From: Patescibacteria group bacterium
Lineage (GTDB): Bacteria; Patescibacteriota; Patescibacteriia; CAIXNZ01
NCBI GenBank assembly: GCA_041651155.1
Contig: JBAZJU010000006.1
Location: forward strand, 4,638 to 68,637
Length of the DNA: 64,000 nucleotides
Reading direction: 5' to 3'
Part shown: in pieces, positions 580 to 57,279 of the stretch
Position numbering within the stretch: the stretch's first letter is position 1
How the letters are laid out: every line of letters begins with the position of its first letter
Position numbers and translations under genes: made by a program
Notes under the pieces: model-generated
What the model saw: only the letters and a program-made list of their open reading frames with translations
What the model was told of the DNA's origin: nothing
The model's database searches: none

Positions 580-1821
580 ATGCAGTTATCATCCTTACTA
601 AAAATTTCATACACAGCCTTGCTGTCAAAAAAATCCCGAACGTTTTTAACAATGCTCGGGATTATTATTGGCATTGCTTCAGTGATTATTATTATGTCAG
701 TCGGCGCAGGCGCGCAAAGTTTAATTGTAAATCAGATCAAAAGCCAGGGCTCAAACTTGATTGCTATTTTTCCCGGCAAAAGTGATGAAAAAGGACCGCC
801 GCCGAGTGTAATGGGGATTGTAAATACTAGTCTTAAAAATGAAGATATTGATGCGCTAATGAATCCTAATAATGCTCCGCATGTGGTAGCAGCTACAGGC
901 TATAATTCGGGCAGCGCCACATTTTCCTGGCGCGACCAGCAAATGGACGGCACATTCAACGGCGTGAACAGTTTTTTCCCGATTGTGGATGACGCGCCAG
1001 TGGCAGAGGGCAGGTTTTTTACAAAAGAAGAAAATATGTCTTTGGCCAGAGTGGCCATAATCGGCAGCCAGGCTAAGCTTGATCTTTTTGGCGATGCTGA
1101 TCCATTGGGCCAAGAAATAAAAATGAAAAGGGTCTCATTCACAGTTATCGGGGTGATGCCGGCCAGGGGCACGCGAGGCTTTCAAAATCAAGACAGTTTG
1201 ATATTTGTCCCGCAAAATACGGCGCAAAAACTTTTATTAGGCATAAATTATAGTTCTTTGGCCAGGGTCAAAGTGGATAGTGAAAGTAATTTAAATGTAA
1301 CAATCAATGATATTACTTTAACCTTGCGCGAAAGGCATGGCATCACTGATCCTGCCAATGATGATTTTACCATCAGGTCGCAGCAGGATTCTTTAAATGT
1401 GCTGCTATCAGTGACAGATGCTATTAAATTTTTTTTGGCAGCCATTGCCGCCATTTCATTGATAGTTGGCGGCGTGGGCATTATGAATATAATGCTTGTC
1501 TCGGTTTCTGAACGAACTCGGGAAATCGGCCTGAGAAAAGCTGTAGGCGCAAAAAGCAGCTCGATTTCCCTGCAATTTTTAGTTGAATCAGTGATTGTGA
1601 CTTTACTGGGCGGAATTATTGGAATTATTGCCGGCGCAGCGCTCTCGATTTTAGTTGCTTTGGTTGCCCGTTATTTAGGCTATGATTGGGATCTGGCGAT
1701 TTCAATCACTTCTATTTTATTAGCGACTTCTATTTCTATTATAATTGGTTTAATTTTTGGCATTTATCCGGCGCAAAGAGCAGCAAGATTAAATCCGATT
1801 GAGGCTTTGCGTTACGAGTAA
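580..1821 (+). CDS. ABC transporter permease, FtsX/MacB family (N-terminal TM, large periplasmic MacB-like domain, C-terminal FtsX 3-TM bundle)
   Basis: 413 aa. N-terminal TM LTMLGIIIGIASVIIIMSVGAG, conserved REIGLRKAVGA motif before the C-terminal TM helices, downstream of ABC ATPase. Confidence 0.85.
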   Translation: MQLSSLLKISYTALLSKKSRTFLTMLGIIIGIASVIIIMSVGAGAQSLIVNQIKSQGSNLIAIFPGKSDEKGPPPSVMGIVNTSLKNEDIDALMNPNNAPHVVAATGYNSGSATFSWRDQQMDGTFNGVNSFFPIVDDAPVAEGRFFTKEENMSLARVAIIGSQAKLDLFGDADPLGQEIKMKRVSFTVIGVMPARGTRGFQNQDSLIFVPQNTAQKLLLGINYSSLARVKVDSESNLNVTINDITLTLRERHGITDPANDDFTIRSQQDSLNVLLSVTDAIKFFLAAIAAISLIVGGVGIMNIMLVSVSERTREIGLRKAVGAKSSSISLQFLVESVIVTLLGGIIGIIAGAALSILVALVARYLGYDWDLAISITSILLATSISIIIGLIFGIYPAQRAARLNPIEALRYE

Positions 1822-1912
1822 TACTACAGATTACAGATTCTTACAGATATACGAATACAAATTGATAATCAAATCTGTAAATCTGTACGTATCCGTAATC
1901 TGTAGTAGAATT
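1822..1912. repeat. Long imperfect inverted repeat (tactacagattacagattcttacagat ... atctgtaaatctgtacgtatccgtaatctgtagtag) between the two permease genes; possible terminator/attenuator or regulatory palindrome
   Basis: Reverse-complement symmetry is visible by eye around a central tacgaat...attgataatcaaat core. Confidence 0.4.
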
Positions 1913-1927
1913 TAACAAAAAGTAATT

Positions 1928-3196
1928 ATGAACATACCAATCTGGTTAGAACAATTTGAAACGCCAGTTCAGATAGCAAAACAAGCGCTATTAAGAAACA
2001 AGGTCAGAACAATCCTGTCCATTTTAGGCGTGGTCATTGGCATTGCCGCTGTGATTATTGTTTTATCGGTCGGGCAGGGGATAAAGGGGTTTTTAATCGG
2101 ACAACTGACAACATTTGGCACTGATTATGTTGAAGTTGAAGTAAAAGTGCCTTCAACCAGCCATGTTTCAACGGAAAATGCCATTGGCATGGCTACGGGC
2201 ATCCAAATTACAACTCTGAAAGATTCTGACATGAAAGCCATTTTAAAATTAGACAATGTTAAAAATGCTTATTCAGGTTCTTTAACTCAGCAGATAACTT
2301 CTTATCAAAGCCAGAATAAACAGACCTTTATTTTTGCAGTCAGTCCTTCATTTATTGAGATTGATCCGACTAAAATTGAGCAAGGCAGGTTTTTTACTGT
2401 TGATGAAGATAATGCCATGGCCAAAGTGGCTGTCTTGGGTCCGAATTTGAAAAAAACTTTGTTTGGCGATGAAGATGCGATTGGCAAGCAAATCAAAGTC
2501 GGCAAAAATACTTTTAAAGTCATTGGCGTGACAGCTCCAAAAGGCTCTCAGTCGTTTTTTGACTTTGATTCTATGTTGTATCTGCCAATTAATACTGTGC
2601 AAAAATTAATTACCGGCGTTGATTATGTAACCTTTATTTTCGTGCAGTTAAAAGATATTTCACAAGCTGAAATCACGGCTGCTGATATCACTTCCTTAAT
2701 GCGCGATCTGCACAAAATTACTGACCCGAATAAAGATGATTTTGCAGTCGTCACTTCAGCCGAGGCTATGGATATGTTAAATACTGTAGTTGGCGCGATA
2801 ACCTTGTTATTAATTGCTATTGCCGGCATTTCACTGGTTGTGGGCGGCATTGGCATTATGAATATTATGTATGTGTCAGTGGCTGAACGCACTTTTGAAA
2901 TTGGTTTGCGAAAAGCAGTAGGCGCTAAAAGCGCTGACATTTTGCGGCAATTTTTAATGGAAGCGATTTTTGTGACTTTTTCCGGCGGGATTGTGGGCAT
3001 AATTATTGGTTCATTGGTTTCTTATCTGATTGCTGTAATTTCAACTTACTTGGGTTTTAGCTGGCAATTTGTGATGTCGCCATTGTATTTGCTTTTGGCC
3101 TGCGGAGTCTCCATAATGGTTGGCGTAATCTCTGGTTTGTATCCCGCGCGGAGCGCGGCTAAATTGGATCCGATTGTGGCCTTGCGGCAAGAGTAA
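1928..3196 (+). CDS. ABC transporter permease, FtsX/MacB family (paralog of preceding gene)
   Basis: 422 aa. Same architecture and same ERTFEIGLRKAVGAKS motif as 580-1821; tandem paralogs. Confidence 0.85.
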   Translation: MNIPIWLEQFETPVQIAKQALLRNKVRTILSILGVVIGIAAVIIVLSVGQGIKGFLIGQLTTFGTDYVEVEVKVPSTSHVSTENAIGMATGIQITTLKDSDMKAILKLDNVKNAYSGSLTQQITSYQSQNKQTFIFAVSPSFIEIDPTKIEQGRFFTVDEDNAMAKVAVLGPNLKKTLFGDEDAIGKQIKVGKNTFKVIGVTAPKGSQSFFDFDSMLYLPINTVQKLITGVDYVTFIFVQLKDISQAEITAADITSLMRDLHKITDPNKDDFAVVTSAEAMDMLNTVVGAITLLLIAIAGISLVVGGIGIMNIMYVSVAERTFEIGLRKAVGAKSADILRQFLMEAIFVTFSGGIVGIIIGSLVSYLIAVISTYLGFSWQFVMSPLYLLLACGVSIMVGVISGLYPARSAAKLDPIVALRQE

Positions 3197-3230
3197 AAAG
3201 GGAAAGAAGAGTAAAAAGGGTAAAAGGGGT

Positions 3231-3290
3231 GGCGGCTAAGGGCGCTCAATTAATTTAATTAATTGGGTTTAAATCTCGCCCTTAGCCGCC
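3231..3290. terminator. Hairpin element copy 1: 14-bp perfect stem ggcggctaagggcg / cgcccttagccgcc with a 32-nt AT-rich palindromic loop, followed by tttaaattt; part of a ~75-95 bp direct repeat also present at 4520-4600
   Basis: Seen directly; second copy differs by one base in the loop. Confidence 0.5.
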
Positions 3291-3459
3291 TTTAAATTTG
3301 AGGGAAAATTCGTATTATTTGTAGCGGATTTGTAGATTAGTATCCTATTGACTTTTTTGTTTTAAAATGTAAACTTACTTTAATAAGAGTTCTTTGAAAG
3401 CGTCAGTAGGCGCTAAAACTCAAAAAAATGGGTTTTTAACCCAAAGAAGGAGAATGGCG

Positions 3460-4284
3460 ATGGGAGAAAATCGTCAGGAAGATTTGTCTGTACAGGCAGA
3501 TCAAAAGTTTGGTCGGCAACTAAAGGAGATCATCGGCCAGTATCTGGCAGGTGATTTAACAGATAAACATTTACAAGGACTGATTGAGCACCGTAATACT
3601 TTTGACGCAATTGAATATCCTGAGTTGGATTTTGCGGTCAAAGTTTTAGGCGAAAACAAAGTAGTCAGTTCTAATGAAGCAGCTATTGCTTGGGAACTGG
3701 ACCCTGAAGGAAAAATTTGGCCTGTTGAAGTATTGGAAAATTTGGTGAAGATCAGATATTCCAAGGCAACCTTGCGCAAGGCAGCCAAAGAAAACAGAAA
3801 GGGCTTAGCTGATTGGCGACTTATCTATATCCATGGTACGAGCCTGCGTGAACAGCGCGAAAAGCGCGGCACAGACCAAGGCAAACAACCCTGTTTTTAC
3901 AAAGAGGGCATTTGGTGGCTGAAAGCCTCGGAGGACAAATGGGCGACTCATAAGCCCCAAGCCGGATACTACCTCATCAATTGTTGCGGCCAGTTCGGCA
4001 ATCTGGACTGGAAGTCGCAGGAGCAGGAGATAGCCAAACTCGGCAAGGAGTATGAGCGTTGCCATGAAACAGTTTTCAGTGAAGCCATTTTGACCATTTA
4101 TATGGTTTATAATGGTGAGCGGATTGCTGAGAAATGGTATCACTGGGGAATTTCGTTGGCTTCCGATGGCGACCGCGTCTTCGTCGGCGATCTGGTTGCC
4201 ATTGGCCTCGGTGTCAGCAACCGCTGGGATGGCTTCTCCAATCAAGACCTGCGTGTCGCGCTCGCCTGGAAGTTTGACTATTGA
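3460..4284 (+). CDS. Hypothetical protein, conspicuously GC-rich 3' half relative to the surrounding genome; no recognisable domain
   Basis: ORF 3394-4284. Start placed at ATG 3460 (MGENRQ) because GAAGGAG sits 7 nt upstream; ATG 3454 is too close to the SD. Local GC far above neighbours (e.g. gaccgcgtcttcgtcggcgatctggttgccattggcctcgg). Confidence 0.6.
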   Translation: MGENRQEDLSVQADQKFGRQLKEIIGQYLAGDLTDKHLQGLIEHRNTFDAIEYPELDFAVKVLGENKVVSSNEAAIAWELDPEGKIWPVEVLENLVKIRYSKATLRKAAKENRKGLADWRLIYIHGTSLREQREKRGTDQGKQPCFYKEGIWWLKASEDKWATHKPQAGYYLINCCGQFGNLDWKSQEQEIAKLGKEYERCHETVFSEAILTIYMVYNGERIAEKWYHWGISLASDGDRVFVGDLVAIGLGVSNRWDGFSNQDLRVALAWKFDY

Positions 4285-43933: not shown

Positions 43934-45607
43934 ATGTCTTTAGCTTTATACAGAAAATACAGGCCGCAGACCTGGCAGGAATTAACCGGCCAGAATCACA
44001 TTAAAGTGACCTTGCAGCATGAAATTGAAACTGGCAAAGTTAGCCATGCTTATCTTTTTACTGGCCCGCGCGGGATCGGTAAAACTACCACGGCGCGGCT
44101 TTTAGCCAAGGCAATTAATTGCGAAAAGCGCCAGGAAGGCGAAAGCGAACCTTGCGGTCAGTGTGATTCATGCTTGGAATTAACTGCTGGCAATGATTTG
44201 GATATTTTGGAAATAGATGCAGCTTCGCATACAGGAGTTGATAATGTGCGCGAGAATATTATTGCCAACGCGCGTTTTACTCCTGCTAAAAGAAAATTCA
44301 AAGTGTTTATCATTGATGAAGTGCACATGCTGTCAATCTCGGCTTTTAATGCGCTTTTAAAAACCCTGGAAGAACCGCCGGCTCATGCCATATTTATTTT
44401 AGCTACGACTGAAGTGCATAAAGTGCCAGCCACTATTATTTCCCGCTGCCAGAGATTTGATTTTAAAAAAGTTAATGCTGATGATTTAATTAAGCGCTTA
44501 AGCTGGATGTGCCAGCAGGAAAACGTGAAAGTCACTAGTGATGTCTTAACTGATATCGCCCGCTTTAGCGAAGGTTCTTTGCGCGATGCTGAGAGCTTGC
44601 TCGGACAAATTCTCTCGCTTGGTGAAAAGGAAATTGGCAGGGCAGAAGCCAGCTTAATCATTCCTGCTTCAAATTATAATTTGGTTCTAGAGCTTGTTGA
44701 ATATTTAGTCTATAAAAATTTGGAAGCCAGCATTACCTTAATTAATAAATTAGTGCAGGAAGGCGTTGATCTTAATAAGTTTGTTGATGACTTGGTGGAA
44801 TTTTTACGCAAAATAATTTTGGCAAAAATCAGCGGAAGTTTAAAATCGTATTCTTTTGAATTGGATGAAAAAATGGAAAAAGCCATACTGGAGGTCTCGC
44901 AGAAATTTGAAGCGGCAGAACTGGTTGATTTGATTAATTCATTTAGCTCAAAAAAATTTGAAATAAAAACAGCGGCTATTCCTCAGCTGCCTTTAGAAAT
45001 CGCAGTGATAGAGTATTGCGGCAAAGGTTCCTCCTTTGCTTCTGGCGAAGCTTCGGAGGACAAGAAAGATGGGAAATTCCCGCCGGGCGGAGGAGCAATT
45101 TCAGGCAGCAAATTGGCAGACAAAGGAAAAGAAAATACAGGTGGTGCGAACAGCGCCACTTTAAAAAATTCAATTTCTGTGAATAAAGGCGACTTAAACA
45201 AAAAGATAAATATAAGTCTTGACAAAATAAAAAATAAATGGCATAATTTTTTAGTAAAACTCCAGGAGACCAATGCATCTTTAGTTTTTATTCTAAAAGT
45301 ATCAGAACCTTTAGAATTAAACGGTAATATCTTAAAGATCGGCTTTAAATATCCTTTTCATGAACAGCGTGTGAACCAGGCTAAAGTTAAAGACGCAGTG
45401 GAAAATATTTTAGCAGAATTTTTTAATGAGCAAATTATTGTTGCGACCAGCCTTTTGCCCAAGGATTATGAAAGTGATTTTATTAAAGAAGAAACTAAGT
45501 CTGATGAGGTTGAATTAGTGGAAGAAATATCCAGCCCTGTTAACGGTGAACAGCAAGCTATGATTGATAATTTGGTTAAGACGTTTGGAGGGAAGGTGGT
45601 GGAATAA
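43934..45607 (+). CDS. dnaX: DNA polymerase III subunit gamma/tau
   Basis: LYRKYRPQTWQEL, Walker A GPRGIGKTT, zinc module CGQCDSC, DEVHML, SRCQ sensor motif. Confidence 0.92.
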   Translation: MSLALYRKYRPQTWQELTGQNHIKVTLQHEIETGKVSHAYLFTGPRGIGKTTTARLLAKAINCEKRQEGESEPCGQCDSCLELTAGNDLDILEIDAASHTGVDNVRENIIANARFTPAKRKFKVFIIDEVHMLSISAFNALLKTLEEPPAHAIFILATTEVHKVPATIISRCQRFDFKKVNADDLIKRLSWMCQQENVKVTSDVLTDIARFSEGSLRDAESLLGQILSLGEKEIGRAEASLIIPASNYNLVLELVEYLVYKNLEASITLINKLVQEGVDLNKFVDDLVEFLRKIILAKISGSLKSYSFELDEKMEKAILEVSQKFEAAELVDLINSFSSKKFEIKTAAIPQLPLEIAVIEYCGKGSSFASGEASEDKKDGKFPPGGGAISGSKLADKGKENTGGANSATLKNSISVNKGDLNKKINISLDKIKNKWHNFLVKLQETNASLVFILKVSEPLELNGNILKIGFKYPFHEQRVNQAKVKDAVENILAEFFNEQIIVATSLLPKDYESDFIKEETKSDEVELVEEISSPVNGEQQAMIDNLVKTFGGKVVE

Positions 45608-45703
45608 GTTTAAAATTCAAAGTTAAAAGTTTAAATTTGCAGTTCAAAATTAAAAATTTTAATTTTTTTGTCATTTGTTATTTGTCATTTGATATTTCTA
45701 TAT

Positions 45704-45775
45704 TGGGGAGTAGCCAAGTGGTAAGGCACCTGCCTCTGGAGCAGGCATTCGTAGGTTCGATCCCTACCTCCCCAG
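45704..45775 (+). tRNA. tRNA-Gln (anticodon CTG)
   Basis: Cloverleaf by eye: acceptor tggggag/ctcccca, D arm gcc-aagtggtaa-ggc, anticodon stem cctgc/gcagg with loop ctCTGga, T arm gtagg-ttcgatc-cctac, discriminator g; CCA not encoded. Confidence 0.8.
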
Positions 45776-45951
45776 TCCTATATTTATCCGCAGAAGGTAT
45801 GCTTAAGCGCACATTTTTTCTCTTGGCAAGAATGATTTATGTTCAACAATATTTTATAAACGAATTAATATATGTCTATCGATAAGGAACTTAAATGTTG
45901 AAATGGCGCTGATATCAATTTAAAATTCTAACCGAATCGTAAAATTATTTT

Positions 45952-46864: not shown

Positions 46865-47557
46865 ATGATTAGAGCTACAAATCTTTTGTCTAAATACTAT
46901 GGGGAGACAGGCGGATACCTGAGGGAGCATGACACATTTTTACGTTCGGCGGATATCAAAAAGGATCTGCTTTTCTTAATTAGGGCGCTTGATATAAAAA
47001 AGAGTGATGTCATTTTAGATATTGCTTGCGGCCAGGGGCGTCATAGCAACGCTTTGGCGGAAAAGGGTTATCAAGTAGACGGTGTTGATTTTTCCCAATA
47101 CTTGCTTGATAAGGCAAGGGCAGGGGAAAAAGAATTATCAAGGGGAAGACCTAATTATTATAAAGCTAATGTTGAACAACTAAATTTGAAAAAAAAGTAT
47201 AGCAAAGCCTATTGGTTTTTTTCTGATTTGGCGGATATTGATTTGCCCAAGGCAATTGTCTCTATAAGTCATAATATGAAAGTAGGGGGAATGGTTCTTC
47301 TCGACACGGATAATATTTTCAGAATCCTTGCCTACCTTTCTAAAAATCACGATTCGGGTTTTGATTTTGACGCTAGCCGCTTGGAGCTTATTGTTAAAAA
47401 AAACAATTTGCGCATAAAATACCCCGTCTTACCTTTGTGGGAACAATGGCTGAGGGCATCTGGTTTTTTCATTAAAGATTTTTGGGGAGATTATAAATTT
47501 AGCAAGTATTCGGTTAAAAGCCCCAGATTAATAATATTAGCAAAAAAAATCGCTTAG
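46865..47557 (+). CDS. Class I SAM-dependent methyltransferase
   Basis: Motif I VILDIACGQGRH, post-I VDGVDFS, motif II-like MVLLDTD. Confidence 0.65.
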   Translation: MIRATNLLSKYYGETGGYLREHDTFLRSADIKKDLLFLIRALDIKKSDVILDIACGQGRHSNALAEKGYQVDGVDFSQYLLDKARAGEKELSRGRPNYYKANVEQLNLKKKYSKAYWFFSDLADIDLPKAIVSISHNMKVGGMVLLDTDNIFRILAYLSKNHDSGFDFDASRLELIVKKNNLRIKYPVLPLWEQWLRASGFFIKDFWGDYKFSKYSVKSPRLIILAKKIA

Positions 47558-47591
47558 GTTCTTGAACTTAAGCGATTTATGTTTGCGAGCT

Positions 47592-49025
47592 TTATGCTGT
47601 TGTCGCATGGGAATTAACTGTAGCATATAGCTGGTTGACTTTGCACTTGAAAAGATCAGGTTCTTCAGTAAGTATCCACATTAATTCCAGTATTGAATCG
47701 TGAATTTCTTCGCATTTAAAGTGCGGGCTTTTGAGTTCTCCAGTCGTCTGGTAATTTTCTCCGCGACAATTACCGGCGCACAAATACCGCACATCGCATG
47801 CCGAACATTTGGGGTTTAAAGAATCTATGTTTAAAGTGCGGAGTTCCTTTAAAATGGGTGAGGTTTCCCAAATATCGGCAAGATTAGTATCCAGAAGGTT
47901 CCCCAGCTTAAAGTCCTGTAATGCTGTGTCTGCGCAGGGGTAAAGGGTTCCATCAGCTTTGACGTAAACAGCTCGATTCGTGCCGATGCCACAACTATAG
48001 CTTTTCACTCCTCCCGCAATGCCCATGATTTGATTAGCAAAAGTAGAACACATCATCAACTCTTGCAATCTTGGCTCATTGCGAATCGCTTCAAACACTT
48101 TTCGGTAGAAAGTGGCTAAAGGCACTGGAATTAGAAGTTGTTTGGTTTTCTTGCTATTGCCTCGGCCTACATGCATCATATTTAGGCAATTAAACCCTTC
48201 CACGCCAAGCGAGTTGGCTAAAATCATCGTTCCTTTCATGTCGTCAATGTTTTCAGCATGAACGAACATATTTATAGCCACAGACACACCGCTTTGGCAA
48301 AGTGCTCTTATATTTTTTATGGTGAGATTAAAGGTATCTTTGCCCCTGATGTACTCATGTGTGGCTTTTTGGCAGCCATCAAGCGAAATTGACATCTTTA
48401 GTCTTGGATACTCAGCCAGCTTGGCGATTTGGTTTTTCGTAAGCAGTGTGGCGTTGGTATTGACTTGGACAAAAAAACCTTGGTTGTGGACATATTCAAT
48501 TAAGTCTAGGGCATCTGGACGCGTAAATAGCTCGCCACCTGTTAGAGCTACGCGTGAAATGCCGTTTTGCCAAGGCATTTTAGTGAGTTGATCGACAACC
48601 ATTTTTATTTGTTTAGTTGTCATTTCACTTGGCATCTTTTGGCTGGCCATTGCATAGCACATCGGACAGGTCATATTGCATTGCTGGGTAGTAGCAATGA
48701 CCAATACATTTTCTACTTCATTAACCTGGAAGTCGGGGGAATATTCTTTAGCTTGAGCCATTTCGCCGTCAATAGCCAAAACTCCCGAGGAATAAAGCAA
48801 ATCTTTTAGATCGGAATAGACAACTTCCGCATCTATTATTGAAACAGACAAAATGCTAGCAATTTTTTCAATGATTTGCGATGACTCCCCAAGATTAAAA
48901 GCTTTGAGGATATCAATGACTTCATTAGATGCCGAAAACCAGTAAGGTCTTGAAGGAAAAATTACTATAGCATTGTCATCTCGGCTATAGCACGAAGGTT
49001 CTTCGGACATTGTCACTTTACTCAT
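47592..49025 (-). CDS. Radical SAM/SPASM peptide maturase with N-terminal PqqD-like RRE (~110 aa)
   Basis: CX3CX2C at CNMTCPMCYA, LTGGELF, C-terminal SPASM Cys cluster (CSTFANQ ... CGIGTN ... CADTALQ ... CSACDVRYLCAGNC). N-terminal IVIFPSRPYWFSASNEVIDILKAF resembles RiPP recognition element. Confidence 0.85.
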   Translation of the reverse strand: MSKVTMSEEPSCYSRDDNAIVIFPSRPYWFSASNEVIDILKAFNLGESSQIIEKIASILSVSIIDAEVVYSDLKDLLYSSGVLAIDGEMAQAKEYSPDFQVNEVENVLVIATTQQCNMTCPMCYAMASQKMPSEMTTKQIKMVVDQLTKMPWQNGISRVALTGGELFTRPDALDLIEYVHNQGFFVQVNTNATLLTKNQIAKLAEYPRLKMSISLDGCQKATHEYIRGKDTFNLTIKNIRALCQSGVSVAINMFVHAENIDDMKGTMILANSLGVEGFNCLNMMHVGRGNSKKTKQLLIPVPLATFYRKVFEAIRNEPRLQELMMCSTFANQIMGIAGGVKSYSCGIGTNRAVYVKADGTLYPCADTALQDFKLGNLLDTNLADIWETSPILKELRTLNIDSLNPKCSACDVRYLCAGNCRGENYQTTGELKSPHFKCEEIHDSILELMWILTEEPDLFKCKVNQLYATVNSHATTA

Positions 49026-49088
49026 CGATATTTCTCCTTTTTTTAAAAAATGGCAGGGAGGTTGAACCCACCCTGCCTGGCCATTGAG

Positions 49089-49181
49089 TCACTGACCCCG
49101 ATAGTACATCACGCCCTGCGATTCTTTGGTCAGGACGATGACGCCACAATTGCCGCGATTCAGAATCCGGAATCGTTTCAT
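49089..49181 (-). CDS. Candidate precursor peptide (30 aa) MKRFRILNRGNCGVIVLTKESQGVMYYRGQ immediately upstream of the RRE-radical SAM/SPASM gene
   Basis: AGGAGG 5 nt upstream of ATG (49181). Stop followed by hairpin ggcagggtgg-gttcaa-cctccctgcc plus T-tract, then SD and radical SAM start. The overlapping 70-aa six-frame ORF (49018-49230) reads through this hairpin and the next gene start, so it is less plausible. Confidence 0.55.
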   Translation of the reverse strand: MKRFRILNRGNCGVIVLTKESQGVMYYRGQ

Positions 49182-49563
49182 GTGTACCTCCTTTCATAGA
49201 ATTTGGTAATGAGATATGCTTTACTGCCATATTTCATCCATTCATAACTTAACACTAATTTAGTTAGGTTGTCAAAAGAAGCGCTTTAGCGCTTTTTATA
49301 GTGTCTCATTTTGTGCTTAAATAGCCCGACCCAGGTGCCTCAAATCAGCTCTTGAAAAGAATCTCAAAATTCCTTAAAATATCCCTATAACACAGGTCCT
49401 AGACCGGATTGTTCAGCCTTCGCTCTCCGAAGCGAAAAGTGCTCACGCACTTTTTGCATAGGCGAGCCACTACTCAATTTAAGCTTGGCGAGCTACGGCT
49501 GGTGATGACCAGCCAAATGCACCAAATCTAGAAGATTAATCGTAATATATTATAATAGCTAGA

Positions 49564-53528: not shown

Positions 53529-54569
53529 TTAAATATTACATTTTTCCAGCCATTCTTTTTTGCAGGCGCAAGTCAGATTGCTTAGCAAATTTAGGTCTGG
53601 CATTTGGCGATAATTTTTTAGCTGCTTGTAAATCGCAGCGGAACAGCGCGGACAGTTTTTGGGCACGGCCAAAGGCAGGGGATATTCATTTTCAAAATTG
53701 CCGATTTGAATCGGACCCAAATGGTGAGTTTTTTTCAGCACTTCAATGATGCTCCACAGCCAGGGCGGCTGATACATTCCCTGCTCGTAGATTACAGCCA
53801 TTTTTGTGCCCGGCTGGACAAAGGCAGACTCCAGACCGACACTGTCGCTGCCTGATTGAAAAGCAAATTCAATCGTTTTAATCGCTTCAGCGATGGCCAG
53901 GCGTTCGTTGACGCCAACAGGCTTTAAAAATACATAAGTTGAAACTAGGACATCCTGGGCTTTTAGCACTTTAACAGCCTTTTGATAATCAGCCCGGCTA
54001 AAGCCTTTGTTAATGCATTTTTGCCTGATTTCATCATCTTGAGTTTCCAGGCCAATAGCCACTTCCAGCTGTTTTGGGCCTAATTGCTTTTTCAGCGCCA
54101 TGATTTTTTCAAGACTGATCAGCTCTGCTCTAGACTCAATTAAAATATGCCGGCAGCTTGCGTCATCTTTCAGAGAAGTGAGAATTTTTTTCTGGGCAGT
54201 CAAGGGCAGATCCAGGAAACTTCCGCCGGTAAAAATCATAATTTTTCTCGGACCCGAGATCAGCTGCAGGCCCAGCTGAAACATCAAGGCCAAATTTTTG
54301 CCTGAGAAAGGGATATCCTGGGTGAATTCCTTGACAGCCTGCTGGAATCCGCACATCGTGCATTTTCCCCAGGAACAAGGACCTGGTAAAAGCACATACC
54401 CGACGCTTTCGGCTTTATTTGTCTCCGGACAGTACAGAGATTCCAGGTAAGCAAACTCTTCGCCCCGGGTTAAGAAGAAAACTATTTTTCTGCATATTTT
54501 TTTGCCCAGGACGATTTTTAAGAAAATGAGAATCCTAAAAAGAAGATTGCGGCTGAAATTTTTCATCAT
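53529..54569 (-). CDS. Radical SAM-like protein with noncanonical CX4CX2C cluster
   Basis: GPCSWGKCTMCGF near N-terminus; FTGGSF; C-terminal CPRCSAAIY ... CACKKEW. Family not assigned. Confidence 0.55.
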   Translation of the reverse strand: MMKNFSRNLLFRILIFLKIVLGKKICRKIVFFLTRGEEFAYLESLYCPETNKAESVGYVLLPGPCSWGKCTMCGFQQAVKEFTQDIPFSGKNLALMFQLGLQLISGPRKIMIFTGGSFLDLPLTAQKKILTSLKDDASCRHILIESRAELISLEKIMALKKQLGPKQLEVAIGLETQDDEIRQKCINKGFSRADYQKAVKVLKAQDVLVSTYVFLKPVGVNERLAIAEAIKTIEFAFQSGSDSVGLESAFVQPGTKMAVIYEQGMYQPPWLWSIIEVLKKTHHLGPIQIGNFENEYPLPLAVPKNCPRCSAAIYKQLKNYRQMPDLNLLSNLTCACKKEWLEKCNI

Positions 54570-54676: not shown

Positions 54677-56854
54677 TTGGACTTATTTATGGCTTTTATT
54701 ATCAGCTTAATTATTACCGTGCTTTTGGATATCCTGATCCTTTATTTGGGACTGCTGGTATTTAAAAAAAATCCTCAGGGCAAGATTAATCAAATTTTTT
54801 TCATTCTGGCTTTTGCCATTTTAAGCTGGATAGTTTTTAATTTTTTGGAAAACGAAATCAGTTATTTGCCGCTGGCCGCTTTTTTTTTAAAGCTTGATTT
54901 TTCAACCGGCCCTTTGATTGTCAGTTTTTTCCTGCTATTTGCGGTTTATTTCCCTGACCGGGCGGAAATTTTGGCAATCTGGAAAAAAATATTATTAGCC
55001 GCGGTCTGCGCTCTGTTTGCCATTTTGCCGTTTAGCAATCTGCTGCTTAATAATTTTACGATCAAAAATCGCGGCATCCGTTACGAGGAGGGGAGCCTGT
55101 ATGAAGCGTATGCAATCTTTTTGCTGGGCATGATCATGTGGGGCAGTTATATCCTAATAAAAAAATACTTGAGCTATACCGGCCAAAAAAGATTGCAAGT
55201 CATCTACGTTTTAGTAAGTTTCGGCCTAACTGGCCTGATTACCGCAGTGATAAATTTATTTTTTTCAAACAGCCTGCCGATTGAAGTCTCAAGAATCGGC
55301 ATCTATTGCTTTATTATATTTATCGGCAGTACAACTTATGCCATGGTGCGCCATCATCTGATGGATATCAGGGTGATTATCCAAAAAAGCTTGGTTTTTA
55401 CTTTTTTGCTGGTAATAATTTCTGTCCTTTACGCGCTGATAGTTTTTTCCGTTAATTTTATTGCTAAGGGTTTGTCCCTGAATTGGTTGATATTTTCCGC
55501 CGCCCTCACCGTGATTATCCTCTCTTTTACTTTGCCTGTTTTAGAAAAAAAATTCACAAAACTGACTGACAAAATTTTTTTTAAGGCTCCCATTGATTAC
55601 AAGGAGGCGCTGAAAACATTAAGCTATATTTTTGCCACGGAAATAAAACTGCCCGAACTAGTCAAAAAAACCCGGCAATTTCTGCAAAAAACATTTAAAA
55701 TTGACTTGGTCAGCTTTTATTTTTCGGCCAGCATAAAAAAATATTACCGCATTTCCTCTGCTGATAAGAATAAGATTTATTTTTTGCCTGCCAAGGGCAG
55801 TTATCTGGCTAAATATTTTACCAGCCAGTCAAGCGTTTCCAAAATTATTGCCAGAGACGATTTAGAATGGCAGGCAGCGGCGGATAAAACTAAAATCGCG
55901 CGCAAGATGATTTTAGAAATGGACGCGCTTAAAGGTGATTTAGTTATCGCGATTTTCGGCCAAAAAGAGCTTTTAGGCATAATTTGTCTGGGACATAAGC
56001 TTGATGACAATCCATATTTCAGCCAGGATATTGAGTGGTTTGACATTATTGCAAAGCAATTAGGCCTGGCGTTGGAAACTTCATTGCTTTATGAAAATTT
56101 GGAGGATTTAGTGGCGGAAAGGACAGAACAATTAAAACAGGCGAATCAAAAATTAAAGCAAATCAGCGCGGCCAAATCAGAATTCGTTTCTGTGGCCTCG
56201 CACCAGTTAAAGACTCCTTTGTCAGTCATCAGAAATATTTTTTCTTTGCTAAAAGACGGGGATTTGGGCAAAGTCACAGCGAAGCAGTCTGATTATGGGC
56301 AAAGAGGCTTTAAGCAAAGCGAGAAATTAATCAAATTAGTCAAAATGCTTTTAAATATCAGCAGGATTGAAACAGGCAGACTTAATCTTGAGCTGAGCAA
56401 AAGTAATCTTGATCCTATCATTAAAGAGCACCTGCCAATGTTTGAGACTTTAGCCAAACAAAAGAAAATACAAATTCAGTTTTCGCCGGGTTTAGACAAC
56501 AGGCTGTTTAATTTTGATAAGAATTTAATAGGCGAGGTCATAGATAATTTACTTGATAATGCAATTAAATACACGCCTCAAGGCAAGATTATAATTAAAA
56601 GCCAAAAAATCGGCAAACTGGCCAGAGTCAGCATTAGCGACACTGGCCTGGGCATCAAGCCTGACAATCTTAAGGAATTATTTCAAAGGTTTATCCGCGG
56701 CAGCGACAAAAAAAAGATCGCGATTGCCGGCACGGGCTTGGGCTTATATTTTTGCCGGCGCGTGATTGAGGTCCACAATGGCAAAATTTGGGCTGAAAGC
56801 CCTGGCCTGGACAAAGGCGCTGTTTTTATTTTTGAATTGCCCATGATCAAATAA
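54677..56854 (+). CDS. Sensor histidine kinase with ~10 TM N-terminal domain, GAF-like linker, HisKA and HATPase_c
   Basis: H-box VASHQLKTPLSVI, N box DNLLDNAIKY, G boxes DTGLGI and GTGLGL. Confidence 0.85.
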   Translation: MDLFMAFIISLIITVLLDILILYLGLLVFKKNPQGKINQIFFILAFAILSWIVFNFLENEISYLPLAAFFLKLDFSTGPLIVSFFLLFAVYFPDRAEILAIWKKILLAAVCALFAILPFSNLLLNNFTIKNRGIRYEEGSLYEAYAIFLLGMIMWGSYILIKKYLSYTGQKRLQVIYVLVSFGLTGLITAVINLFFSNSLPIEVSRIGIYCFIIFIGSTTYAMVRHHLMDIRVIIQKSLVFTFLLVIISVLYALIVFSVNFIAKGLSLNWLIFSAALTVIILSFTLPVLEKKFTKLTDKIFFKAPIDYKEALKTLSYIFATEIKLPELVKKTRQFLQKTFKIDLVSFYFSASIKKYYRISSADKNKIYFLPAKGSYLAKYFTSQSSVSKIIARDDLEWQAAADKTKIARKMILEMDALKGDLVIAIFGQKELLGIICLGHKLDDNPYFSQDIEWFDIIAKQLGLALETSLLYENLEDLVAERTEQLKQANQKLKQISAAKSEFVSVASHQLKTPLSVIRNIFSLLKDGDLGKVTAKQSDYGQRGFKQSEKLIKLVKMLLNISRIETGRLNLELSKSNLDPIIKEHLPMFETLAKQKKIQIQFSPGLDNRLFNFDKNLIGEVIDNLLDNAIKYTPQGKIIIKSQKIGKLARVSISDTGLGIKPDNLKELFQRFIRGSDKKKIAIAGTGLGLYFCRRVIEVHNGKIWAESPGLDKGAVFIFELPMIK

Positions 56855-56892
56855 ACAATTAAATATTTTTTAACAATTTAATTTTTAAATCT

Positions 56893-57279
56893 ATGAAACT
56901 GGAAGAGAAAACTATTTTAATAATTGAAGATGAGCAGGATTTGGCCGACACTTATAAATTAAAGCTAAAAAATGCGGGTTACAATGTCATTATTGCTGCT
57001 GACGGGCTAAAAGCCTTGGCAGCGGTCAAGGAAAACAAGCAGATAGATTTGATTCTTTTGGATCTTATCCTGCCCCAAAGAAGCGGGTTTTCCCTATTAA
57101 AAGATTTTAAAGAAAATCCCGAATCTGAGAAGATCCCGATTTTTATTTTGTCTAATTTGAGCCTGGAAAAGGAAATTGACCAGGGGCTGAAATTGAAAGC
57201 TGACAAATACCTGATAAAAACAGATTATACTCCGGAAAAAATCGTCAATCTGGTGAATGAATATTTTGCCGGCAAATAA
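56893..57279 (+). CDS. Response regulator, stand-alone receiver domain
   Basis: IEDEQDL, phospho-acceptor D in LILLDLILP, K in conserved position (KADKYLIK). Confidence 0.8.
   Translation: MKLEEKTILIIEDEQDLADTYKLKLKNAGYNVIIAADGLKALAAVKENKQIDLILLDLILPQRSGFSLLKDFKENPESEKIPIFILSNLSLEKEIDQGLKLKADKYLIKTDYTPEKIVNLVNEYFAGK

Follow-up and report, generated by a model that had tools for sequence, protein, structure and literature searches.

The locus considered here raises a simple question: does a 30-codon open reading frame (ORF), standing directly in front of the gene for a radical S-adenosylmethionine (SAM) enzyme, encode a peptide, and is that peptide the substrate of the enzyme? The two genes lie on the minus strand of a 64,000-nucleotide stretch of DNA from a Patescibacteria genome (the window). 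An earlier reading of the letters alone (the original prediction) had taken the unannotated ORF for the gene of a precursor, leading to a peptide made on ribosomes and modified after translation (a RiPP), and the downstream gene for a radical SAM/SPASM maturase with an N-terminal RiPP recognition element (RRE). We find that the 30-codon ORF is a genuine conserved gene, under selection at the protein level. We also consider it likely that its product undergoes RRE-guided maturation by the radical SAM/SPASM enzyme, followed by methylation, in a self-contained RiPP-type cassette of Patescibacteria.

A conserved gene of 30 codons

Taken alone, a 30-codon ORF is uninformative, because 92 ORFs of at least 25 amino acids (aa) overlap the 9-kb stretch around this one; its significance comes from conservation. 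Related loci were collected by a scan of species-representative genomes (16 loci) and a scan of JGI metagenomes (59 loci), and once duplicates were removed, 38 distinct loci remained in which the peptide could be recognised. A search for homologous short ORFs upstream of orthologous radical SAM genes had been recommended as a check; each of the distinct loci (38 of 38) was found to have the peptide ORF immediately in front of its copy of the radical SAM/SPASM gene. In the genome loci, the ORF encodes 27–32 aa from a start preceded by a Shine–Dalgarno (SD) sequence in 14 cases out of 14, and AGGAGG, GGAGG or GGAG precedes the equivalent start in other loci.

The way in which the copies differ is that of a coding sequence. 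Over the gap-free last 26 codons, the pairwise differences between related loci were 600/353/1500 at the three codon positions, and the differing codon pairs comprised 1131 synonymous and 609 nonsynonymous ones, implying that selection acts on the protein and not on the RNA. We could accordingly reject the possibility that the locus is a non-coding RNA, given this codon-position pattern and the lack of any Rfam family: none was found over the whole window at gathering thresholds, and only chance-level matches (E > 2) appeared between 49600 and 48900 at permissive thresholds.

For this genome, the JGI/ENA gene callers recorded instead a 70-aa frame that overlaps the peptide gene. We reject that frame as a gene, since it forms a cluster of one member and is broken by stop codons in most orthologous loci. 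The callers thus mis-framed a real peptide gene, just as the original prediction had suspected, and the case illustrates how a spurious overlapping frame can be substituted for a real small gene. The other details read from the letters (AGGAGG-N5-ATG at 49181, 30 codons, hairpin, T-tract, SD and ATG of the next gene) proved accurate to the base. Three observations had been named in advance as fatal to the prediction, namely conservation of the 70-aa frame only, an enzyme N-terminus not folding as an RRE, and a hairpin belonging to a conserved non-coding RNA; what we found was a conserved 30-aa ORF, an N-terminus modelled as an RRE, and a hairpin with no Rfam family.

The peptides share the consensus M-K-K-[FV]-R-I-L-N-[RK]-G-N-x-x-V-V-x-L-T-K-E-S-Q-G-[VTA]-M-Y-Y-[RLKF]-[GAS]-[QE]. 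Among 45 peptides, K19, E20, G23, M25, Y26 and Y27 are invariant, and conservation reaches 90% or more at I6, G10, N11, L17, T18, S21 and Q22. A divergent clade shows a real variant, encoded on three contigs (...LTKEAQGTMHYKAQK), in which Y26 is replaced by His; Y27, unlike Y26, is unchanged in every peptide, this clade included. Conservation is stronger in the C-terminal half than in the N-terminal one, and the stretch L-T-K-E-S-Q-G-x-M-Y-Y is nearly invariant. This stretch is likely the modified core, and the N-terminal [FV]-R-I-L-N-[RK]-G-N is likely the recognition part of the peptide.

Two hints drawn from the window's own peptide did not survive this comparison. Its sole Cys, which had suggested a sactipeptide or ranthipeptide, occupies position 12, where C, A, S, R, H, K, N, E and Q all occur, and no Cys column is conserved in the family. 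Its GVMYY had been likened to the CGVY of mycofactocin; the residue before Met is V, T or A in the family, and the Tyr pair is not C-terminal, being followed by [RLKF][GAS][QE] and at times by more residues. As neither the Cys nor the 'GV' is conserved, both analogies fail. Trp is found in no member of the family.

Databases held 50 homologues of the peptide, all unnamed; the copies that had been called were annotated as "hypothetical protein", without a Pfam domain, and no model in Pfam or NCBIfam (June 2026) matched the peptide. An exhaustive hidden Markov model (HMM) search of 1.84 billion cluster representatives yielded only 12 true peptide clusters, the remainder being low-complexity noise, and the window's own 30-aa sequence was absent from a 15-billion-protein collection. 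Judging from these searches, the peptide family is small and restricted to this cassette.

A putative sigma-70 promoter (Table 1) appears to be dedicated to the peptide gene. Its −10 hexamer has only three of six consensus matches, so that the promoter was missed by a consensus scan; in 32 of the 38 distinct loci, the 200 nt in front of the peptide start contain a perfect TTGAC[AT]. A hairpin upstream of the peptide SD, in the 5′ untranslated region, had looked conserved by eye and was discarded, as in the window it folds no better than shuffled sequences (z = 0.06). A small palindrome that would pair into a hairpin, AAGCGC-taaa-GCGCTT (49281..49296, minus strand), stands immediately upstream of the −35 element, with CTTTT behind it, and may insulate the promoter as a terminator. 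Farther on, between the promoter and a divergent VanY-like gene, a structured and GC-richer (about 0.5) stretch at 49380..49505 contains the hairpin AAAAGUGC-ucac-GCACUUUU. This stretch has folding z-scores of −3.1 (plus strand) and −2.3 (minus strand) and matches nothing in Rfam; it may serve as an insulator, as a leader or as a terminator in both directions.

The radical SAM/SPASM enzyme and a linked methyltransferase

The enzyme encoded downstream of the peptide is, as had been proposed, a radical SAM/SPASM protein, with the Pfam Radical_SAM domain spanning residues 112–267 and the SPASM domain residues 345–411. Over 94 homologues, down to 47% identity, none of the seven SPASM cysteines varies, nor do C120 and C123; C116 is kept in at least 90%. 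The AlphaFold2 model, built on the 94-sequence alignment, reached a predicted local distance difference test (pLDDT) score of 93.4 and a predicted TM-score (pTM) of 0.92. When the model was compared with the PDB by Foldseek, the best match was CteB, over the whole length and with the RRE included (E = 7e-17, TM 0.63–0.71, about 480 columns), followed by SkfB, SuiB, anSME, TigE and PqqE.

Fold comparison of the first 98 residues pointed to TfuB1 with its leader (7.5) and to the PbtF RRE (7.5), and also listed TbtB, MibB, LynD, PqqD (6.5), McbB, NisB, TglI and MccB. According to the model, then, the N-terminus folds as an RRE, which bears out the resemblance noticed in the original prediction. 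The most conserved segment of this domain is the strand FPSRPYWFSA (residues 23–32), which we take to be the RRE edge strand to which leader peptides pair. The protein therefore shows the features of the RRE-dependent radical SAM/SPASM class: a CX3CX2C motif with the core fold, a seven-Cys SPASM domain, a PqqD-like winged-helix RRE and an adjacent, co-conserved short gene. No NCBIfam equivalog reached its cutoff, the scores being 154 bits for TIGR04053 (cutoff 395), 151.5 for StsB (625), 138 for WgkB (650), 128.6 for MftC (TIGR03962; 265), 99.4 for PqqE (TIGR02109; 381) and 91.7 for DynA (450).

The layout originally described lacked a third conserved gene, which encodes a class I SAM-dependent methyltransferase. 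This gene adjoins that of the putative maturase in all 16 genome loci and in 34 of the 36 assessable distinct loci; when all the ORFs of the related loci were clustered, it emerged as the sole other universally linked gene. The methyltransferase orthologues form a closed group found on maturase-bearing contigs, with E-values dropping from 1e-41 to 1e-10. In the window's clade the gene is convergent with the maturase gene, and the two share a terminator hairpin; in other clades they are co-directional. Because the linkage persists through this inversion, we infer that the two enzymes share a function. In the locus L018 (L numbers designate loci related to that of the window) the genes stand close together, with an 11-nt overlap between the methyltransferase and the stop codon of the maturase. 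L049, one of the two loci without the usual methyltransferase, contains an unrelated class I methyltransferase-like ORF of 252 aa (647..1405), 2.4 kb upstream of the peptide, which may be a non-orthologous replacement.

Alternatively, the small protein might not be a substrate at all: it could serve the enzyme as a partner or regulatory subunit, or the enzyme could act on another protein or on a small molecule. Conservation of the entire 30-aa sequence, beyond the core, would suit such a role, and so would the absence of leader-cleavage machinery from the 38 loci. However, the enzyme possesses a bona fide RRE, a domain known for binding precursor peptides, together with the full set of auxiliary-cluster cysteines in its SPASM domain; its nearest structures are peptide maturases; and the peptide gene is the only small gene universally linked to it. 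We regard a non-substrate role for the peptide as quite improbable.

The other flanking genes differ at each locus, so that the three genes look like a portable module. Decayed cassettes also occur (L016, 4001..5283; L064–L066; L071–L072; L075–L080), in which the maturase is reduced to its C-terminal 100–170 residues and the methyltransferase is sometimes frameshifted; L016 has its methyltransferase split into two ORFs and showed no peptide motif. These copies suggest that the cassette is dispensable and that some lineages are losing it.

Table 1. Positions in the window of the cassette genes, their signals and the adjoining features
Feature	Position	Strand	Remarks
Putative precursor-peptide gene, 30 aa, MKRFRILNRGNCGVIVLTKESQGVMYYRGQ	49089..49181	minus	ATG at 49181; TGA at 49091..49089
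Putative sigma-70 promoter of the peptide gene	49246..49275	minus	−35 TTGACA, 49275..49270; 18-nt spacer; TGn-extended −10 TGtTAAGTT, 49254..49246
SD of the peptide gene, AGGAGG	49187..49192	minus	5 nt from the peptide ATG; read from the sequence
GC-rich hairpin, GGCAGGG-N12-CCCTGCC	49077..49052	minus	between peptide and maturase genes; terminator-like
T6 tract after the GC-rich hairpin	49050..49045	minus	whole element 49045..49077
SD of the radical SAM gene, GGAG	49034..49037	minus	8 nt before the ATG at 49025
Radical SAM/SPASM protein, putative peptide maturase, 477 aa	47592..49025	minus	ATG at 49025; Pfam Radical_SAM 9e-23, SPASM 1e-10
RRE domain (modelled), maturase residues 1–98	48732..49025	minus	four strands then three helices
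CX3CX2C motif of the maturase (C116, C120, C123)	48657..48680	minus	
SPASM cysteines of the maturase (C345, C364, C407, C410, C416, C420, C438)	47712..47993	minus	
Terminator hairpin downstream of the maturase gene, ATCGCTTAAG...CCTAAGCGAT + T8	47542..47576	minus	RNAfold −16.9 kcal/mol; overlaps the last methyltransferase codons
Class I SAM-dependent methyltransferase, 230 aa	46865..47557	plus	convergent with the maturase gene; Pfam Methyltransf_25, Methyltransf_11
APH-family phosphotransferase, 299 aa	45952..46851	plus	Pfam APH 4.4e-11; immediately upstream of, and co-directional with, the methyltransferase

The APH-family phosphotransferase is a possible accessory tailoring gene, its membership in the cassette being uncertain. 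Such a gene is found near the methyltransferase in about 7 of the 38 loci, belonging to three divergent clades (the window, L002, L005, L023, L012, L041 and L018/19; it lies at 3563..4705 in L018, 8026..8955 in L012 and 6944..7861 in L041), and in L018 the operon order is peptide, radical SAM enzyme, methyltransferase, APH. The kinase could phosphorylate the conserved Thr18, Ser21 or Tyr of the peptide, or be unrelated. Between it and dnaX (43934..45607) the window has an ordinary tRNA-Gln (CTG) gene, at 45703..45778 on the plus strand.

Some further genes near the cassette, or related to its enzyme, are recorded here. Five of the 38 loci encode a multi-pass membrane sensor histidine kinase at a distance of a few kb from the cassette (window, 54677..57279, plus strand; L002, 1089..2747; L003, 6222..6929; L011, 6886..8643; L041, 1..1796), by coincidence or possibly as a regulator; a 128-aa receiver protein comes after it in the window. 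The window also encodes another radical SAM protein, of 346 aa (53529..54569, minus strand; Pfam Radical_SAM 3.8e-07, without SPASM), some 4.3 kb away from the cassette, which did not turn up beside the cassette at the other loci. In L011, from a Patescibacteria metagenome-assembled genome (MAG), a 46-aa Cys-rich ORF with a good SD (897..1037, MENIAITSLVELEAISMATANLDNPGHKLSGECCCDQCCDDYVCKD) directly precedes a 435-aa radical SAM protein (1104..2411), 1.6 kb upstream of the cassette; this RiPP-like pair looks to be of the ranthipeptide/SCIFF type. Finally, L062 encodes a sibling maturase family (1892..3343; 32% identity, with the same N-terminal 'VIFP' strand), and the ORF upstream of it (1688..1852) is a different one, of 54 aa, ending in ...NRTECREGCGW. 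The maturase clade may therefore serve several unrelated precursor families.

Hairpin, proposed pathway and competing explanations

The GC-rich hairpin between the peptide and maturase genes begins 11 nt after the end of the peptide ORF and folds with −19.5 kcal/mol (z = −2.2; 5 of 200 shuffles fold equally well). Its presence was part of the original prediction, and as a structure it is indeed conserved, recurring in about 31 of the 34 loci in which the limits of the spacer could be set. The stem has 10–17 bp, is GC-rich and is typically worth −20 to −28 kcal/mol; spacers containing it measure 54–95 nt, and the hairpin sequence is unrelated from locus to locus. In the predicted fold, the SD of the maturase gene is not sequestered by the main hairpin. 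The element is probably a leaky terminator, or a stabiliser of the RNA 3′ end, which would raise the precursor mRNA over the enzyme mRNA. An arrangement of this kind is found in lantibiotic and subtilosin operons.

An ORF that stops so close to a terminator-like hairpin might instead be a regulatory leader or arrest peptide, controlling read-through of the hairpin and hence expression of the maturase; arrest peptides can be conserved in amino acid sequence, as this peptide is. Several observations argue against such a function. The maturase SD is free of the hairpin, a T-tract follows the hairpin in only about one-third of the loci, and the most divergent clade (L018–L020) keeps the peptide with an 18-nt spacer and no hairpin. 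Moreover, the strong SD and the dedicated putative promoter fit a highly expressed product, and the RRE would be left with no ligand. We give this explanation a very slim chance.

For the preferred reading, in which the peptide is a precursor, we propose the following pathway. The fused RRE would bind the peptide at its conserved N-terminal part (xRILN[RK]GN), and this binding would present the near-invariant C-terminal core to the radical SAM site. There, the 5′-deoxyadenosyl radical would take a hydrogen atom from the core, and the oxidative half-reaction would be handled by the two auxiliary SPASM clusters. The expected product is a C–C (or C–O) crosslink between an aliphatic carbon of K19, E20 or M25 and a Tyr ring, and the methyltransferase would subsequently methylate the crosslinked product. 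Throughout, the hairpin, acting as a leaky terminator or RNA stabiliser, would keep the precursor mRNA in excess of the enzyme mRNA.

Among the chemistries open to the enzyme, a crosslink to a Tyr ring seems the most likely, because conserved Cys and Trp residues are lacking from the core, and Y27 is the only aromatic residue that is always present. Thioether and Trp-crosslink chemistries were rejected for the same lack of a conserved Cys or Trp in the peptide. Analogous crosslinks are formed by PqqE (Glu-Tyr), MftC (Val-Tyr), RrrB (Arg-Tyr) and StrB (Lys-Trp). A core that is nearly frozen, and devoid of the usual Cys and Trp, also implies that the enzyme may carry out uncatalogued radical chemistry on Tyr, Lys, Glu or Met.

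Some points weigh against this scheme. The Tyr-directed crosslink is proposed by analogy, and the best HMMs (TIGR04053, StsB, WgkB and MftC) do not discriminate between enzyme types, as all score alike, at 128–154 bits, far under their cutoffs. The Pfam PqqD HMM gives weak matches in only 4 of the 94 maturase homologues, and a profile search of the PDB returned no meaningful match; as sequence methods do not detect the domain, the RRE can be verified only by its fold. The methyltransferase could have a substrate other than the peptide. Clustering of the ORFs of the 38 loci revealed no recurring protease, transporter or exporter, or immunity gene, so that the leader removal and export typical of RiPPs are unaccounted for. 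Finally, the shortage of T-tracts and the loss of the hairpin from the L018–L020 clade mean that termination is not universal.

The lack of export functions also fits another fate of the modified peptide, which might not be a secreted bioactive compound: it could be the precursor of an intracellular cofactor, comparable to pyrroloquinoline quinone (PQQ) or mycofactocin, with a fragment containing the invariant Glu/Lys and Tyr freed by housekeeping proteases. In line with this, no exporter, immunity gene or dedicated protease is conserved. The core varies less than the N-terminal part, remaining near-invariant while the enzyme falls to about 48% identity; such a frozen core is seen in PqqA and MftA and not in antimicrobial RiPPs. 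Furthermore, the invariant Glu and Tyr are the building blocks of PQQ. On the other hand, the 38 neighbourhoods contained no PqqB/C/F-like or MftD/E/F-like genes and no recurring candidate for a client dehydrogenase, and the spacing here is E-x5-Y, as opposed to E-x3-Y in PqqA. The patchy distribution of the cassette (16 of about 185,000 species genomes), along with its decayed copies, suggests a dispensable accessory trait. A cofactor role is in our view possible, albeit on the unlikely side.

We can suggest only tentatively, and with low confidence, that the cassette makes a new Tyr-derived, methylated peptide modification, or a peptide-derived cofactor, acting inside Patescibacteria and formed without the use of Cys or Trp. 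If true, this would be a PQQ- or mycofactocin-like invention in organisms thought to be almost devoid of biosynthetic capacity. The genomes of Patescibacteria are minimal, and few biosynthetic gene clusters indeed have been recognised in them; the cassette, conserved in several lineages of the group, provides a handle on what these uncultured symbionts make. The system is also small (30, 477 and 230 aa) and amenable to heterologous co-expression.

Distribution and comparison with known systems

Homologues of the maturase number in the hundreds, and nearly all those whose source is named come from MAGs of Patescibacteria, or candidate phyla radiation (CPR). The names include Uhrbacteria, Magasanikbacteria, Parcubacteria/Paceibacterota and Peribacteraceae, as well as Peregrinibacteria-like bins; one further locus is labelled Berkelbacteria. 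As far as these sequences indicate, the three-gene cassette is found so far only in Patescibacteria. Four MAGs with the cassette (L010, L012, L013 and L014) are labelled 'uncultured Gammaproteobacteria' in third-party (TPA) assemblies; we suspect that these labels are wrong, as the cassette genes are closest to those of L011 and P0049, loci labelled Patescibacteria or Paceibacterota. A full-text literature search, with motif strings and with combinations of Patescibacteria, CPR or Parcubacteria and radical SAM or RiPP, found no description of the family, subscription-only papers being outside its scope. The family is new; the architecture, that of a radical SAM RiPP cassette, is already known.

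In comparison with the PQQ system (PqqA/PqqD/PqqE), the cassette differs in the Glu-Tyr spacing given above, in the fusion of the RRE to the radical SAM enzyme, in the lack of PqqB/C/F genes and in the low score against the PqqE model. Mycofactocin (MftA/MftB/MftC) resembles the cassette in its peptide of about 30 aa, whose C-terminal region is invariant and includes Tyr, in combining a PqqD-like RRE with a radical SAM/SPASM enzyme, and in a core conserved over a wide phylogenetic distance. However, the RRE is fused here and is not a separate MftB, the 'GV' is not conserved, and there are no MftD/E/F genes. Since the Tyr is not the C-terminal residue of the peptide, the oxidative decarboxylation catalysed by MftC is inapplicable. 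We rejected a mycofactocin assignment, as the ...GVY end of MftA and the mftB/D/E/F neighbours are lacking and the enzyme scores less than half the TIGR03962 cutoff (128.6 against 265 bits).

The best whole-length structural superposition was with CteB, which stands for the maturases of sactipeptides and ranthipeptides. This match to a sactisynthase-like enzyme, and the presence of StsB and MftC among the top HMMs, could be taken to indicate a sactipeptide, ranthipeptide or mycofactocin-type system. Formation of a thioether, though, depends on a Cys of the core as donor, and no Cys is conserved across these peptides. The Val before Met is replaceable, at least 3–4 residues follow the Tyr pair, no mft accessory genes are present, and the StsB and MftC scores fall well below their cutoffs. 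Together, these facts make an assignment to any of the three types scarcely credible.

Triceptides are crosslinked between residues 1 and 3 of an aromatic-X-X motif, which is usually repeated. Here there is a single Y-Y-[RLKF] or Y-[RLKF]-[GAS], unrepeated and with a variable third residue, and no NCBIfam HMM for a triceptide enzyme scored over its cutoff with the maturase.

The streptide-type systems (StrA/StrB and SuiA/SuiB, with WgkB, RrrB and StsB) differ from the cassette in some respects. They are hosted by Firmicutes rather than Patescibacteria; the peptides described here have no conserved Trp or Cys, and the scores with StsB and WgkB (151 against 625 and 138 against 650 bits) are low. 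In addition, the cassette has a conserved methyltransferase, and no transporter is conserved nearby in the 38 loci, among which no specific search for shp/rgg regulators was made. A Trp-crosslinked radical SAM RiPP (of the StrB, WgkB or DarE-like kind) was considered and dismissed, since the peptide has no conserved Trp acceptor and the scores with WgkB and DynA (91.7 against 450 bits) are under the cutoffs. Nevertheless, it is with the streptide-type systems that the cassette shares its plan, a short precursor encoded directly upstream of a fused RRE–radical SAM–SPASM protein; SuiB was among the top structures, and StsB and WgkB were the top named HMMs. Of these enzymes, StsB makes a sactionine thioether, whereas StrB/SuiB, WgkB and RrrB form an aliphatic-to-aromatic C–C crosslink, the chemistry that we would expect here as well.

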